Shown here piece by piece: positions 1-6,320 of a stretch of DNA of 64,000 nt. The position numbers and the translations under genes were made by a program. The notes below the pieces were generated by a model. The model was given only the letters and a program-made list of their open reading frames with translations. It was not told where the DNA came from and did no database searches. How positions within the stretch are numbered: the stretch's first letter is position 1; the number at the start of each line of letters is the position of its first letter. The stretch comes from Escherichia coli (lineage in GTDB: Bacteria > Pseudomonadota > Gammaproteobacteria > Enterobacterales > Enterobacteriaceae), in assembly GCF_044324785.1 (NCBI RefSeq), contig NZ_CP172127.1, one strand, 5' to 3'.

Positions 1-2301
1 ATGGCCGTTAAAGCCTCCGGGCGTTTTGTCCCTCCGTCAGCATTTGCCGCAGGCACCGGTAAGGCGTTTACCGGTGCTTATGCATGGAACGCGCCACGCG
101 AGGCTGTCGGGCGCGAAAGACCCCTTACACGTGACGAGATGCGTCAGGTGCAAGGTGTTTTATCCACGATTAACCGCCTGCCTTACTTTTTGCGCTCGCT
201 GTTTACTTCACGCTATGACTACATCCGGCGCAATAAAAGCCCGGTGCACGGGTTTTATTTCCTCACATCCACTTTTCAGCGTCGTTTATGGCCGCGCATT
301 GAGCGTGTGAATCAGCGCCATGAAATGAACACCGACGCGTCGTTGCTGTTTCTGGCAGAGCGTGACCACTATGCGCGCCTGCCGGGAATGAATGACAAGG
401 AGCTGAAAAAGTTTGCTGCCCGTATCTCATCGCAGCTTTTCATGATGTATGAGGAACTCTGCGATGCCTGGGTGGATGCGCATGGCGAAAAAGAATCGCT
501 GTTTACGGATGAGGCGCAGGCACATCTGTATGGTCATGTTGCTGGCGCTGCACGTGCTTTCAATATTTCCCCGCTTTACTGGAAAAAATACCGTAAAGGG
601 CAGATGACCACGAGGCAGGCATATTCTGCCATTGCCCGCCTGTTTAACGATGAGTGGTGGACTCATCAGCTTAAAGGCCAGCGTATGCGCTGGCATGAGG
701 CGTTACTGATTGCTGTCGGGGAGGTCAATAAAGACCGTTCTCCTTATGCCAGTAAACATGCCATTCGTGATGTGCGTGCGCGCCGCCAGGCAAATCTGGA
801 ATTTCTTAAATCGTGTGACCTTGAAAACAAGGAAACCGGCGAGCGCATCGACCTTATCAGTAAGGTGATGGGCAGTATTTCTAATCCAGAAATTCGCCGG
901 ATGGAGCTGATGAACACCATCGCCGGTATTGAGCGTTACGCCGCCGCAGAGGGTGATGTAGGGATGTTTATCACGCTGACCGCGCCGTCAAAGTATCACC
1001 CGACACGTCAGGTCAGAAAAGGCGAAAGTAAAACCGTCCAGCTAAATCACGGCTGGAACGATGAGGCATTTAATCCAAAGGATGCGCAGCGTTATCTCTG
1101 CCGTATCTGGAGCCTGATGCGCACGGCATTCAAGGATAATGATTTACAGGCCTACGGTTTGCGTGTTGTTGAACCACACCACGACGGAACGCCGCACTGG
1201 CATATGATGCTTTTTTGTAATCCACGCCAGCGTAACCAGATTATTGAAATCATGCGTCGCTACGCGCTCAAAGAGGATGGCGACGAAAGAGGAGCTGCGC
1301 GAAACCGTTTTCAGGCAAAACACCTTAACCGGGGCGGTGCTGCGGGATATATCGCGAAATACATCTCAAAAAACATCGACGGCTATGCACTGGATGGTCA
1401 GCTCGATAATGATACCGGTAGACCGCTGAAAGACACAGCTGCGGCTGTTACCGCATGGGCGTCAACGTGGCGCATTCCGCAATTTAAAACGGTTGGTCTG
1501 CCGACAATGGGGGCTTACCGTGAACTACGCAAATTGCCTCGCGGCGTCAGCATTGCTGATGAGTTTGACGAGCGCGTCGAGGCTGCACGCGCCGCTGCAG
1601 ACAGTGGTGATTTTGCGTTGTATATCAGCGCGCAGGGCGGGGCAAATGTCCCGCGCGATTGCCAGACTGTCAGGGTCGCCCGTAGCCCGTCGGATGACGT
1701 TAACGAGTACGAGGAAGAAGTCGAGAGAGTGGTCGGCATTTACGCGCCGCATCTCGGCGCGCGTCATATTCATATCACCAGAACGACGGACTGGCGCATT
1801 GTTCCGAAAGTGCCGGTCGTTGAGCCTTTGACTTTAAAAAGCGGCATCGCCGCGCCTCGGAGTCCTGTCAATAACTGTGGAAAGCTCACCGGTGGTGATA
1901 CTTCGTTACCGGCTCCCACACCTTCTGAGCACGCCGCAGCAGTGCTTAATCTGGTTGATGACGGTGTTATTGAATGGAATGAACCGGAGGTCGTGAGGGC
2001 GCTCAGGGGCGCATTAAAACACGGCCTGAGAAGACCAAACCGTCAGCAAAGAAACGGAAGCCCGTTAAAACCGCATGAAATAGCGCCATCGGCCAGACTG
2101 ACCCGGTCGGAACGAATGCAAATTACCCGTATCCGCGTTGACCTTGCTCAGAACGGTATCAGGCCACAGCGATGGGAGCTTGAGGCGCTGGCGCGTGGTG
2201 CGATGGTGATATTCGATGATAAAAAATATAAGTATGTGGCAAGTAATGTCGATGAGTGGCAGGGTTTTAGTAATGAGTACTTCAGCAAAGAGCTCAAGTA
2301 A
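1..2301 (+). CDS. A: P2-type replication initiator, rolling-circle nicking endonuclease gpA (766 aa)
   Basis: ORF starts with ATG at position 1. HUH-type motif PHWHMML and tyrosine pair GYIAKYISK are visible in the translation. Colinear with the downstream P2-like gene set. Promoter lies outside the window. Confidence 0.9.
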   Translation: MAVKASGRFVPPSAFAAGTGKAFTGAYAWNAPREAVGRERPLTRDEMRQVQGVLSTINRLPYFLRSLFTSRYDYIRRNKSPVHGFYFLTSTFQRRLWPRIERVNQRHEMNTDASLLFLAERDHYARLPGMNDKELKKFAARISSQLFMMYEELCDAWVDAHGEKESLFTDEAQAHLYGHVAGAARAFNISPLYWKKYRKGQMTTRQAYSAIARLFNDEWWTHQLKGQRMRWHEALLIAVGEVNKDRSPYASKHAIRDVRARRQANLEFLKSCDLENKETGERIDLISKVMGSISNPEIRRMELMNTIAGIERYAAAEGDVGMFITLTAPSKYHPTRQVRKGESKTVQLNHGWNDEAFNPKDAQRYLCRIWSLMRTAFKDNDLQAYGLRVVEPHHDGTPHWHMMLFCNPRQRNQIIEIMRRYALKEDGDERGAARNRFQAKHLNRGGAAGYIAKYISKNIDGYALDGQLDNDTGRPLKDTAAAVTAWASTWRIPQFKTVGLPTMGAYRELRKLPRGVSIADEFDERVEAARAAADSGDFALYISAQGGANVPRDCQTVRVARSPSDDVNEYEEEVERVVGIYAPHLGARHIHITRTTDWRIVPKVPVVEPLTLKSGIAAPRSPVNNCGKLTGGDTSLPAPTPSEHAAAVLNLVDDGVIEWNEPEVVRALRGALKHGLRRPNRQQRNGSPLKPHEIAPSARLTRSERMQITRIRVDLAQNGIRPQRWELEALARGAMVIFDDKKYKYVASNVDEWQGFSNEYFSKELK

Positions 2302-2351
2302 TGGTAGAATTAAATATTGTTGTCTAAATATACATATATGGTTAACTGAAC

Positions 2352-3503
2352 ATGAATGTGGTTGATTTATACTCAGGGGTAGGTGGTTTAAGCTTGGGAG
2401 CATCACGGGCAGGCTTTAACTTGGTTGGTGCCGTTGAGTTGGATAAGCATGCAATATTTTCCCATGCTCTTAATTTCCCAAATTCAACACATTTACATAA
2501 AGATGTTAGCAAACTTTCTGCTCATGATATTCTAACAGCTTGTAATGTTAGTAATATTGATTGTGTCATCGGTGGACCACCTTGTCAGGGATTTAGTACA
2601 ATTGGTAAAGGGATGGCTAATGACGTCAGAAATGAATTGTATATTCATTTTTTTAGGTTGGTGAGCGAGTTATCACCTGTTTGTTTCTTGGCAGAGAATG
2701 TTCCTGGGATAATGAATGAAAAATATGATGCAGTTAGAGAAAAAGCATTCTCATTAGTAAAAGACCGATATGTAATATTGAGCCCAATAAAAGTGAATGC
2801 GTCTAATTATGGAGCTCCTACAACTAGAACTAGGATTTTTTTTATCGGATTCAAAAAGGAATTAGCTAATTGTTTAAAAGAATCTGATTTCTTTCCTGTG
2901 CAAGATATTGAGCAAACCTTAGTTAAAGATGCTTTATACGGTATTCCTCGTGTTATAAGAAAAGAATGGCAGCAAGAGGAACAAGGCTGGCGTGAAGTTA
3001 AGATGGATAGGCAAGGATATTTTTTTGATAGACTTTGGAGTAATGTTCCGAATAATGTTGGTGATCCGGAATCTTTAGAAAAATTAAAAAAAGGGTTGGT
3101 CTCCGGTTTCTTGGGAACAATACATACAGATGAGGTTATTAATAGATATAAAAAACTCTCTTTTGGCGAAACTGATAAAATTTCACGATCTCAGAGGTTA
3201 AATCCAAATGGTTTCTGTCCGACGCTAAGGGCTGGAACTGGCAGCGATAAGGGCAGTTATCAAGCAGTTAGGCCGATCCATCCAACGCAGGCTAGAGTTA
3301 TTACTCCACGTGAGGCTGCTCGATTACAAGGTTTTCCTGATTGGTTTAGGTTTCACCCTACTAAGTGGCATAGTTTCAGGCAAATCGGTAATAGCGTTAG
3401 CCCATTAGTAGCTGAAGCTATGCTATTACCGTTATATAAATTATGTCAGTTTTCTAAAGAAGAACTTTCGAATACCACGGAATTACTTTGTAATACTCAA
3501 TAA
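2352..3503 (+). CDS. DNA (cytosine-5)-methyltransferase (383 aa)
   Basis: Canonical C5-MTase motifs in order: motif I DLYSGVGG, motif IV GGPPCQGFS, motif VI FLAENVPG, motif VIII-like TTRTRIFFIG, motif X IGNSVSP. AT-rich relative to flanking phage genes. Starts 51 bp after the gpA stop. Confidence 0.85.
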   Translation: MNVVDLYSGVGGLSLGASRAGFNLVGAVELDKHAIFSHALNFPNSTHLHKDVSKLSAHDILTACNVSNIDCVIGGPPCQGFSTIGKGMANDVRNELYIHFFRLVSELSPVCFLAENVPGIMNEKYDAVREKAFSLVKDRYVILSPIKVNASNYGAPTTRTRIFFIGFKKELANCLKESDFFPVQDIEQTLVKDALYGIPRVIRKEWQQEEQGWREVKMDRQGYFFDRLWSNVPNNVGDPESLEKLKKGLVSGFLGTIHTDEVINRYKKLSFGETDKISRSQRLNPNGFCPTLRAGTGSDKGSYQAVRPIHPTQARVITPREAARLQGFPDWFRFHPTKWHSFRQIGNSVSPLVAEAMLLPLYKLCQFSKEELSNTTELLCNTQ

Positions 3504-3915
3504 AGTTTTTAAGGTTACTATTAGCCTCGGCTTCATCATCTCCAATGTAAAAGCCGAGGTCGTTGGTAATTTCTTCATGGTCTTTTGTAGGAAGTCGTTC
3601 CTCAATAAAGATTCTCTCACGTAAAGACATCGTGGGAACACTAATGTTTTTGACGGTGCCCCAGTCTCCAGAATAAAAGGGCCAAAAATTAATTCGAGAA
3701 TTTTGAAGGAAGCTATCTAATTGCATATCACTGTTTTCGAGAACAATGGCAGTAAAGGTAAGCATTTGCTGACCATCTTTGTAAATAAAATTACATAAAG
3801 GATGGATCATTATATCTGGTCTACCTGTTAATCCAATACTTATGGCACGTTGAGCTGCTTTTATTAAAAGGTGTGGGTACCTTTTAAAAGTGACATCATC
3901 AACAGTTAGATTCAC
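3454..3915 (-). CDS. Hypothetical protein (153 aa), third gene of GHKL-ATPase operon
   Basis: GTG start overlaps the stop of the upstream 177-aa ORF by 4 nt (GTGA). No recognisable motif. 3' end overlaps the MTase 3' end convergently by 50 bp. Confidence 0.55.
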   Translation of the reverse strand: MNLTVDDVTFKRYPHLLIKAAQRAISIGLTGRPDIMIHPLCNFIYKDGQQMLTFTAIVLENSDMQLDSFLQNSRINFWPFYSGDWGTVKNISVPTMSLRERIFIEERLPTKDHEEITNDLGFYIGDDEAEANSNLKNFIEYYKVIPWYSKVLL

Positions 3916-4445
3916 TGGGCAATAATCTTGAGTAAGTAAAGATTGTATTTTTTTAATCGAAAACGCCTAGGGTCTCTTTCTTGAAAATCTCTTCCTAAAG
4001 TTTCAGGAGTTGCATTTAAAGTTATTTTAAATATATCTTTTGGCTTTAACTTACTTACCAATTGAGCAATGTCATTCATTTGCTCATATATTTGGCTTGG
4101 TATGGCATAGTCAAGCCAAATTAGAGAAGGTGCAGCGAAGTCGCTTTGAGTAATAAATTCACTGCTACTTAAAGGTTCTTCTCCTAAATCAATACATGAT
4201 ATAGGTTTGTTAAATTTTTGTCGTTTATGAACGTTAGCATCTACCTCTAGAGAGATCATGTTATTGATTTTTAAAGCATTATGCAGTTGTTTGAAGTCTT
4301 CTAGAAAAGGGCCACCAAACCCGATATAAACATAATCGGATATGTTTACATAGTTGTTGAGTTTTCTGAGCAACTCAATGAATAGATTTCTTTCGACAGC
4401 TTTGTGTTGTCGAAGATGATAAGGAATACTTCCCCCAGTACTCAT
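3912..4445 (-). CDS. Hypothetical protein (177 aa), second gene of GHKL-ATPase operon
   Basis: ATG overlaps the stop of the 488-aa ORF by 4 nt (ATGA). Weak glycine-rich stretch YVYIGFGGPF could be a nucleotide- or SAM-binding loop, but no confident family assignment. Confidence 0.55.
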   Translation of the reverse strand: MSTGGSIPYHLRQHKAVERNLFIELLRKLNNYVNISDYVYIGFGGPFLEDFKQLHNALKINNMISLEVDANVHKRQKFNKPISCIDLGEEPLSSSEFITQSDFAAPSLIWLDYAIPSQIYEQMNDIAQLVSKLKPKDIFKITLNATPETLGRDFQERDPRRFRLKKYNLYLLKIIAQ

Positions 4446-5908
4446 TTTTTTGCCCTCTCTAAAAAATCTTCAAAGCAATAATTACCAATTTCTGTCGGAG
4501 GAACAGAATCATCATCGAAAATGAAAGTGGCAACAGTTTTTATCTCACTCAATCTTCTACTAAATTTTATTTGCTTTAAAGGGTCTGTTTCTTTAGGTAT
4601 TGGCAATGTTGGTTTGAAACTATTCCCACCAATGGATCTATGCACCCGAGACCATTTATCTTCAGGTACTATGCTATCTAGTTTGTCGTTTGTAAGAGGA
4701 ATTGTTTTAGATGTGGAACTAAACATTTGCTGGCGTTCTGGAGAGTTACTTTTCCATCTGTTAGTAAAATCTGTAAATATTTTCAAGCCTTCACGCATGA
4801 AATCTTTAGTAGCCAAATAGATATCAGAATTACCATCAATGCCTCTCTTGGTAGTAGTAATAGGTAATTTTTCAGCTTCATTAGATGTAAAAATAGCTAC
4901 GCCTGCAATTCCAACAAATTGTGTGTGATATTGTGGAACTCCTGCTTCACCCCATCCGGTAAGACGTGTCTTGTCCGCATGAACAACAACACGATCATTG
5001 CAGATAATAGTCCATCCGGCTTTCTCGGAAGTGTTACGTCCAGTAAGGAATGAATTTTCCTCATCTTCTGTCACAAAATCTCTATAGAATCCAACTGCGA
5101 TCTTTATTGAAACTCCATTAGTTTCACCTCTGTAAAAATAAGGCGTGATACCACCTTTTTTCGCTGACACAAGAGCTTCGGTATCGATAATTAATGATGT
5201 CAGATTTGGCTTGACTTCTATATCATTAATATAGACCTTGAAACCTTTATTAAGAATTAGGCTATAATGGTTTGAAACAGAATTGATTAATTTTTGTTGA
5301 AAATCACGATCAACTTTGAAATGGTTTTTTACATCGTCTCTGAGATCGTTAACTATAATTTTTACGCCCGTTGTTTTTAAATCGACATTACCACGTTCGA
5401 GATCTAGTTTCCAGTTTTTATCATTGGATAACCATTCTGGAGAAATTGTAACTTTAAATTCCTCGTCTTTTGTTTTACTTAATACTTGCGATGAAGTGCC
5501 CAACTTAAAAATAGCTCGCTTCATACCTATCCCATAAACACCAATGGTTGGGATATTATCTATGTCTCTTTCATTTGGTCTTCCCATTCGGAAAGCATAG
5601 CTTGTTGCTAAGCTTCCCGAAATTCCGCCACAATTATCTTCAATTGTAAAACCATCTTCATTAAAATTTATTTTTGAGTAAAAACCGTGGTATTTATTTT
5701 CTTCGTTTATTTCTTCATTCGATGATGAAATGGAACGAAGAGCGCCATCAAGACAGTTGTCTAATAAGTCAAGAATAGCATCTTGGAGTTCGATATCCCT
5801 GGTTAACATTTCTACAAAGAAACGTTTTGCAGGAAAAGCTTCGATGATATCGTTTGCCATAGTTATTTTAGTTCCATCTGTGTGATTACTTATAGATATG
5901 TTTACCAT
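4442..5908 (-). CDS. GHKL-superfamily (MutL/GyrB/MORC-like Bergerat fold) ATPase (488 aa)
   Basis: N-box AILDLLDNCLDGA, G1 box IEDNCGGISG and G2 box IGVYGIGMKRA occur in the expected order and spacing in the N-terminal ~130 residues. C-terminal ~350 residues unassigned. First gene of a 3-gene coupled operon. Confidence 0.7.
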   Translation of the reverse strand: MVNISISNHTDGTKITMANDIIEAFPAKRFFVEMLTRDIELQDAILDLLDNCLDGALRSISSSNEEINEENKYHGFYSKINFNEDGFTIEDNCGGISGSLATSYAFRMGRPNERDIDNIPTIGVYGIGMKRAIFKLGTSSQVLSKTKDEEFKVTISPEWLSNDKNWKLDLERGNVDLKTTGVKIIVNDLRDDVKNHFKVDRDFQQKLINSVSNHYSLILNKGFKVYINDIEVKPNLTSLIIDTEALVSAKKGGITPYFYRGETNGVSIKIAVGFYRDFVTEDEENSFLTGRNTSEKAGWTIICNDRVVVHADKTRLTGWGEAGVPQYHTQFVGIAGVAIFTSNEAEKLPITTTKRGIDGNSDIYLATKDFMREGLKIFTDFTNRWKSNSPERQQMFSSTSKTIPLTNDKLDSIVPEDKWSRVHRSIGGNSFKPTLPIPKETDPLKQIKFSRRLSEIKTVATFIFDDDSVPPTEIGNYCFEDFLERAKK

Positions 5909-6136
5909 AAAACAAGGTACAGATCATCGATGTTTAGCACAACATCTTGAGAGTTTCTTGGTAGCATGAGGGGGATTATGCCGCTTATTTTATGATTTTC
6001 AGCTTTGTGCTAATGCATCTAACTGGTGCATGAGTTTGCATTCGCTTTTATTTCAAAGCATGTGGGGGCGTGCTAGTGTTGGTAGAGCTCTGATTTCCTG
6101 ATGCAACTGCATTAAAACCGCCCCATGAAGCGGGCG

Positions 6137-6155
6137 GGCGAGGCGGGGAAAGCAC
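6137..6155. other. cos: P2-type cos site (19-nt cohesive end GGCGAGGCGGGGAAAGCAC)
   Basis: Exact 19-mer present in the GC-rich spacer between the cargo operon and the portal gene Q, where cos lies in P2. The P2 cohesive-end sequence is recalled from memory. Confidence 0.7.
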
Positions 6156-6297
6156 TGCGCGCTGGCGGTGGTGCTGATTTTATTTTTTCAGCGTCTCAGC
6201 GCGTCGTGACGGCGCTTAGTCTGCCCGTTGAGGCGTTGGTGTGTCTGCGGGGTGTTTTGTGCGGTGGTGAGCGTGTGAGGGCGTGATGACGGGGTGT

Positions 6298-6320
6298 AAA
6301 AAAGCCGCCCGCAGGCGGCG
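6298..6320 (-). terminator. Rho-independent terminator downstream of Q
   Basis: Minus-strand hairpin CGCCGCC-TGC-GGGCGGC followed by a T6 run, immediately after the Q stop codon. Confidence 0.65.

Follow-up and report, generated by a model that had tools for sequence, protein, structure and literature searches.

In a P2-like prophage of Escherichia coli, the gene of a C5 DNA cytosine methyltransferase that follows the replication gene A appears to possess a promoter-like signal of its own, a predicted extended -10 sigma-70 element of the type that does without a -35 box. We consider it probable that this methylase is the modification component of a three-gene cassette in the cos-proximal hotspot of P2-like prophages, further comprising a MORC-like GHKL ATPase and a PF20553 protein, and that it is expressed from its own promoter as well as by read-through from upstream. 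The original prediction had placed the gene behind A with no obvious dedicated promoter; this is contradicted by the sequence TGgTAGAAT at 2302-2310, which is conserved and moves with the cassette into non-P2 contexts. All positions refer to the window, i.e. the whole stretch of 64,000 nucleotides that was analysed, and the features are collected in Table 1.

Table 1 Features of the methylase cassette and its surroundings in the window
Feature	Position	Strand	Remarks
P2-type gene A, replication endonuclease	1..2301	+	ORF of 766 aa, stop TAA 2299-2301; so annotated in EC77 and EC05
Predicted extended -10 sigma-70 element TGgTAGAAT (TGGTAGAAT)	2302..2310	+	Conserved in homologous cassettes
Conserved box ATGGTTAA, consensus cATGGTTAt	2338..2345	+	6-14 nt 5' of the ATG; GGTT at 2340-2343 invariant; alignment A1
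C5 DNA cytosine methyltransferase gene	2352..3503	+	ORF call, 383 aa, all six conserved motifs
PF20553 (Methyltransf_35) gene, class-I SAM-methyltransferase fold	3454..4445	-	Convergent with the methylase gene
MORC-like GHKL ATPase gene	4442..5861	-	472 aa; first gene of the minus-strand operon
Upstream region of the minus-strand operon	5862..6117	-	Sole consensus candidate CTGAAA-16-CATAAT at 6002..5975
Terminator-like hairpin	6118..6137	-	Terminator scan
P2-type cos cohesive-end sequence GGCGAGGCGGGGAAAGCAC	6137..6155	.	Sequence read directly; presumed cos
Second terminator-like hairpin	6304-6319	-	Terminator scan

The methylase gene as hotspot cargo

The methylase is matched over its full length by PF00145 (Pfam, E 1e-57) and scores 168 bits against the TIGR00675 cutoff of 100.65, and a PDB sequence search returned 3G7U as the closest solved structure (E 1e-156). 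Its motifs stand in canonical order, namely I (DLYSGVGG, residue 5), IV (PCQGFS, 77), VI (ENV, 115), VIII (TTRTR, 157), IX (TPREAARLQGF, 318) and X (GNSV, 346), and a variable target-recognition region separates VIII from IX, as is characteristic of C5 DNA cytosine methyltransferases. With these motifs intact and both families matched, the enzyme looks catalytically intact, in line with the original prediction that it has every catalytic motif and is probably active. The description of the gene as cargo placed directly after A behind an AT-rich spacer also stands: the stop codon of A (2299-2301) and the ATG at 2352 are separated by 50 bp (2302-2351) with 24% G+C. A consensus scan requiring a -35 box reported no -35/-10 pair on the plus strand of 2250-2351, just as no convincing pair had been recognized before, and a scan of the same region found no terminator on this strand, hence none between A and the methylase gene.

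Between roughly 2200 and 6000, G+C drops from ~54% to ~35%. Portal and terminase genes occupy the minus strand from 6325, and GGCGAGGCGGGGAAAGCAC at 6137-6155 is presumably the P2 cos end. Because A, the low-G+C cargo, the portal and terminase genes and cos are so placed, we assign the locus to the cos-proximal gpA-gpQ cargo hotspot, the position of which was described by Rousset et al. 2022 (PMC9122126). Relative to other E. coli P2-like prophages the backbone is homologous up to 2235, inside A, and again from 6101 onwards; homology to a diverged Enterobacter cassette begins at 2272, and the 3' end of A (2236-2301, the last ~22 codons) is mosaic, differing between prophages by cargo. These breaks in homology (2235; 2272) indicate that the last part of A, stop codon included, belongs to the DNA that moves together with the cargo. 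The tails of A found with different cargo differ around a common G-A-x-V-x-(Y/F)-x-x-K-K motif, and several cassette-bearing phages have tails with a similar end, (Y/F)FSKExK-stop, encoded by cassette-linked DNA.

The cargo was present in 2 of 5,426 complete E. coli genomes and its flanks in 2,157, and a search by DNA of the phage GenBank collection gave no match. It resembles known P2 hotspot cargo (old/tin of P2; Rousset et al. 2022, PMC9122126) in its place between A and the portal gene next to cos, in its low G+C (~35% vs ~54%) and in being swapped between otherwise near-identical prophages, and it differs from the systems of that study in being rare and in not belonging to those curated or tested there. 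The exact trio (WP_021517198, WP_021517197 and a HATPase_c_3 protein) is nevertheless listed among the P2-hotspot arrangements in Table S5A of the same paper (PMC9122126), so that the cassette is already catalogued. Literature searches, including by Pfam name and protein accession, found no functional study of the trio.

A predicted extended -10 element upstream of the methylase gene

The predicted element adjoins the stop codon of A and consists of a TG (2302-2303, at -15/-14) one base 5' of the hexamer TAGAAT (2305-2310), which has the T-12, A-11 and T-7 of an extended -10; its -35 region is poor (3/6). TGn-extended -10 promoters work without a good -35 box, and since TGGTAGAAT is of this class, a scan that requires a -35 box cannot report it. 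From the usual distance between -10 and start, transcription is predicted to begin at ~2316-2319. The element is like extended -10 (TGn) promoters of E. coli in having the TG one base 5' of a TAnnnT hexamer and a weak or absent -35, and unlike them in adjoining the stop codon of the upstream gene. Taken alone, TGGTAGAAT in the window is weak evidence for a promoter, the pattern TGNTANAAT having only 4 matches in the 64-kb window compared to 7.9 expected from shuffles, and the weight of the argument comes from the comparison of homologues.

Hereto, upstream regions were gathered from cassettes found via the PF20553 protein and from 44 viral contigs found via the methylase. Among 30 homologous upstream regions, none identical to another, 28 have TGnTAnnnT 35-55 nt 5' of the ATG, a count that includes related sequences and thus does not represent independent events, against a mean of 1.3 and a maximum of 6 in 2,000 shuffles; only 3 further matches occur elsewhere in the 30 regions. 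In an alignment of 15 diverged cassettes (A1), the invariant columns 5' of the leader are T2299, T2302, G2303, T2305, A2306, A2309 and T2310, which, T2299 aside, correspond to the TG, T-12/A-11 and A-8/T-7 in diverged flanks. The positions kept across homologues are those known to contact sigma-70, and the bases between and around them vary, as in TGGTAGAAT, TGATAAGAT, TGGTACAAT, TGTTATAAT and TGGTATGAT.

The element is kept whatever the upstream gene is, be it A, a 178-aa ORF (Enterobacter), a 63-aa ORF (Cronobacter), DinI (Klebsiella), a TacT toxin (Pectobacterium island) or lambdoid prophage genes. In three variants the methylase gene is co-directional inside the operon; those of Aeromonas and Pseudomonas are without the motif, and that of Vibrio has it only at -24, which falls outside the -55..-35 window of the count. 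Together these comparisons argue for a conserved promoter-like signal of the -35-less type in front of the methylase gene.

In 20 of 28 homologues, the window included, the ATG or GTG that overlaps the motif either stands in the wrong frame or has stops after it; because the frame is closed or shifted in these, coding constraint is excluded as the cause of the conservation. An N-terminal extension of the methylase from the ATG at 2301 was rejected, as it meets a stop after 8 codons in the window. In 8 of the 28 homologues (L003 8146-8095, L005, L009, L027-L029 and L032 among them) the overlapping ATG opens an in-frame 17-codon extension (MVE[CY][RK]I[IF]NW...), by which automatic ORF calls give a 400-aa methylase, e.g. 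in L003. Many of these extended-frame leaders carry a GATC (Dam site) just 3' of the -10; the window lacks it. Within the methylase gene, an extended -10 on the antisense strand (2529-2537) was taken as a chance occurrence, being common to only 1 of 14 homologues checked (L030).

From the predicted start, the methylase leader is AU-rich, ~35 nt long and without Shine-Dalgarno sequence. No conserved RNA structure was found in this 5' leader (RNAalifold -1.2 kcal/mol, no covariation), and Rfam gave only a sub-threshold chance match. The ATPase gene also has no normal Shine-Dalgarno sequence, and before its ATG, at about 5875-5882 on the minus strand, stands gATGGgAt, which is akin to the conserved box of the methylase leader (Table 1). 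Both boxes could be atypical ribosome-binding sites or sites for a regulator.

Partner genes and distribution of the trio

The sole consensus candidate for a promoter of the minus-strand operon is not conserved in homologues, and alignment upstream of the ATPase gene revealed conserved blocks without a consistent -10. One block, GAATGCAAAnnCATGCA, is conserved at about 6020-6050 (minus strand) in several cassettes (alignment A5), and the related GCATGCATTTTGATGCA occurs in other P2 contexts; it might serve as an operator or promoter element, or belong to the P2 backbone. The two terminator-like hairpins (6118-6137 and 6304-6319) are predicted to insulate this operon from the late portal/terminase operon. 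At the other end, 50 nt (3454-3503) are common to the methylase and PF20553 ORFs in a tail-to-tail overlap, and the terminator scan found none between the two genes on either strand, so each transcript is expected to continue antisense into the neighbouring gene. This overlap is kept in the subgroup of cassettes with 80% identity and not in that with 60-66%.

Neither in the PF20553 protein nor in the ATPase was a nuclease or another effector domain detected. PADLOC and NCBIfam gave no meaningful matches for the two partners, searches of PDB sequences and profiles only marginal matches to MORC3 (E about 0.1), and both fall into PHROG families of unknown function.

Viral loci whose methylase reaches 60% identity or more number 44, 21 from P2-like phages and 23 from other phages, and in every one of them the methylase gene is accompanied by a convergent pair of PF20553 and GHKL ATPase genes. 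Conservation is higher for the methylase (80-83%) than for the partners (62-76%). The trio is further present in a lambdoid prophage carried by 173 E. coli genomes, with a methylase that is 64-66% identical and partners that are only 34-41% identical; this cassette has the same layout, with TGTTATAAT at -41, in another type of prophage and at another insertion point than in the window. It was also found in Tn7-like elements of Aeromonas and Vibrio, in integrase islands of Pectobacterium and Burkholderia, in Pseudomonas, and in a Pantoea-like lambdoid context. The higher conservation of the methylase together with the strict trio is what a fixed functional module would be expected to show. An orphan anti-restriction methylase would be unlinked to restriction-type partners, and here the pair is never missing from the 44 loci. 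Because the linkage is strict and the trio recurs across elements, the methylase is best regarded as a fixed operon partner and not as a free anti-restriction enzyme, so the question whether it serves the adjacent operon or the infecting phage leans, from these genomic comparisons, to the former; a partner role and an anti-restriction role during infection are not exclusive.

Several cassettes carry additional genes. In Burkholderia (L078) a Vsr gene lies beside the ATPase gene. In Vibrio and Aeromonas (L076/L013) the trio is Tn7-like cargo adjoining tnsE, with an extra 610-aa HATPase_c_3 gene in Vibrio, and in Serratia plymuthica (L008) there is an HNH_2 gene plus a second methylase paired with a 574-aa HATPase_c_3 protein. 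A distant relative in Desulfuromonadales has no nearby methylase gene and a truncated ATPase.

With convergent type II restriction-modification (R-M) modules the cassette shares a separate methylase unit that faces its partners with a tail-to-tail overlap and no terminator, strict co-inheritance, and a Vsr gene beside one variant. It differs in lacking a controller (C) protein, and the partners showed neither the fold nor a motif of a restriction endonuclease; since no cognate restriction endonuclease was found next to the methylase, the cassette falls outside the definition of a type II R-M system. It also resembles the predicted R-M operons in which MORC/paraMORC GHKL ATPases occur (Iyer, Abhiman and Aravind 2008, PMC2292703), as here too an ATPase with GHKL and S5 domains is linked to a cytosine methylase in a conserved neighbourhood. 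A trio of C5-methylase, HATPase_c_3 (HEF_HK) plus Response_reg_2 has also been described computationally (PMC8011034). Vsr or HNH neighbours, present in some cases, are a further likeness, and the cassette differs from both in its third partner, a PF20553 protein of SAM-methyltransferase fold instead of a helicase, nuclease or receiver-like domain.

Expression of the methylase and alternative explanations

From the sequence elements, conservation, synteny and protein folds observed here we infer promoter activity, read-through and self-marking by 5-methylcytosine, which would act together as follows. In the lysogen, the -35-independent extended -10 promoter (2302-2310), as part of the cassette, would sustain constitutive sigma-70 transcription of the methylase gene, the transcript running through the unstructured AU-rich leader of ~35 nt that has no Shine-Dalgarno sequence. 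We agree with the original prediction that, with the early operon repressed, a methylase serving for protection has to be expressed independently of it, and other systems of this hotspot worked from their native promoters (PMC9122126). As no terminator stands between A and the methylase gene, read-through from the P2 early operon is likely and would add a burst of methylase on infection or induction. An unterminated methylase gene next to a partner operon insulated by two terminators would favour expression of the methylase before or above that of its partners on entering a new host. 5-methylcytosine might then be the mark by which the MORC-like ATPase and the PF20553 protein tell self DNA, an idea in keeping with the R-M association predicted for prokaryotic MORC/paraMORC ATPases (PMC2292703); that methylation protects against the partners is a hypothesis, because no nuclease or effector domain was found in either.

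A promoter-like signal of its own is ordinary for prophage cargo that must work in the lysogen, and the conserved element and the arrangement are in this respect nothing exceptional. Scans that require a -35 box miss extended -10 promoters, which comparison across mobile contexts can recover. The analysis moreover sets out where a widespread three-gene module (methylase, MORC-like ATPase and PF20553 protein) begins and ends and what it consists of, so that it can be cloned as a unit. What stays interesting is the MORC-type cassette itself and a possible built-in order of expression. Tentatively, and with more doubt than conviction, we suggest that the three proteins constitute a nuclease-less, methylation-marked system of self/non-self discrimination, a bacterial counterpart of MORC-and-5mC genome defence for which P2-like and lambdoid prophages, Tn7-like transposons and genomic islands are the vehicles. 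In P2, the place of the methylase gene at the unterminated end of the early operon and the insulation of the partner operon would then provide 'methylase first' timing on lysogenisation of a new host.

The same data can be read differently. It seems improbable to us that the methylase gene has no working promoter and is expressed by early-operon read-through in lytic growth only, its product being an anti-restriction enzyme that pre-methylates progeny DNA. The gene has the orientation of A and begins 50 bp downstream with neither a terminator nor a -35/-10 pair in between, and phage-borne orphan methylases acting against restriction are well known. However, the extended -10 is conserved in non-phage and non-P2 contexts that have no early operon upstream, and an autonomous anti-restriction enzyme does not need the strict linkage to PF20553 and ATPase genes in 44 of 44 loci. 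We give very little credence to TGGTAGAAT being conserved as the start of an N-terminally extended isoform, or as a cassette-boundary or recombination signal, instead of as a promoter. The motif does lie near the junction of backbone and cargo, but cassette homology runs 5' of it to about 2268-2272; the 17-codon extension is in frame in 8 of 28 homologues, including the 400-aa ORF of L003, yet the frame is closed or shifted in the 20 others, and the pattern of invariant positions fits sigma-70 contacts and not codons.

A further explanation concerns the state of the cassette in this particular prophage. The adjacent operon assumed by the original prediction is indeed present, but its PF20553 gene is frameshifted in the window: a run of seven T (3941-3947) replaces the eight of E. 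coli EC77 and EC05 and of two IMG/VR copies, and this 1-nt deletion splits the 330-aa ORF, which is intact in EC77 and EC05, into ORFs of 177 and 153 aa joined by a GTGA overlap. The missing T may reflect an assembly error in the homopolymer or a genuine loss of function, and the frameshift may leave the methylase in effect an orphan in the window. That the cassette is decaying here, the restriction-like side being killed and the methylase persisting as a solitary epigenetic or protective enzyme, is possible, although we lean against it. The deletion relative to these four copies speaks for decay, as does one more locus (L038) with only a partial PF20553 match. Over 4.5 kb, however, the single missing T is the only difference from EC77 in otherwise 100% identical sequence, which is typical of long-read assembly errors in homopolymers, and a 2026 preprint reports pseudogenes to be rare in these hotspots.

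Several complete RefSeq E. coli chromosomes (EC05, EC13, KOr021 and PE15) start, like the window, exactly at the ATG of gene A, probably because software rotated these assemblies to a 'replication' gene; such a rotated start suggests an origin in long-read assembly, which is relevant to the homopolymer frameshift. Just beyond cos, 8 bp at 6188-6195 (TCAGCGTC) are missing from EC05, which also has five substitutions between 6252 and 6361 compared to the window; EC77 is identical to the window in both places.
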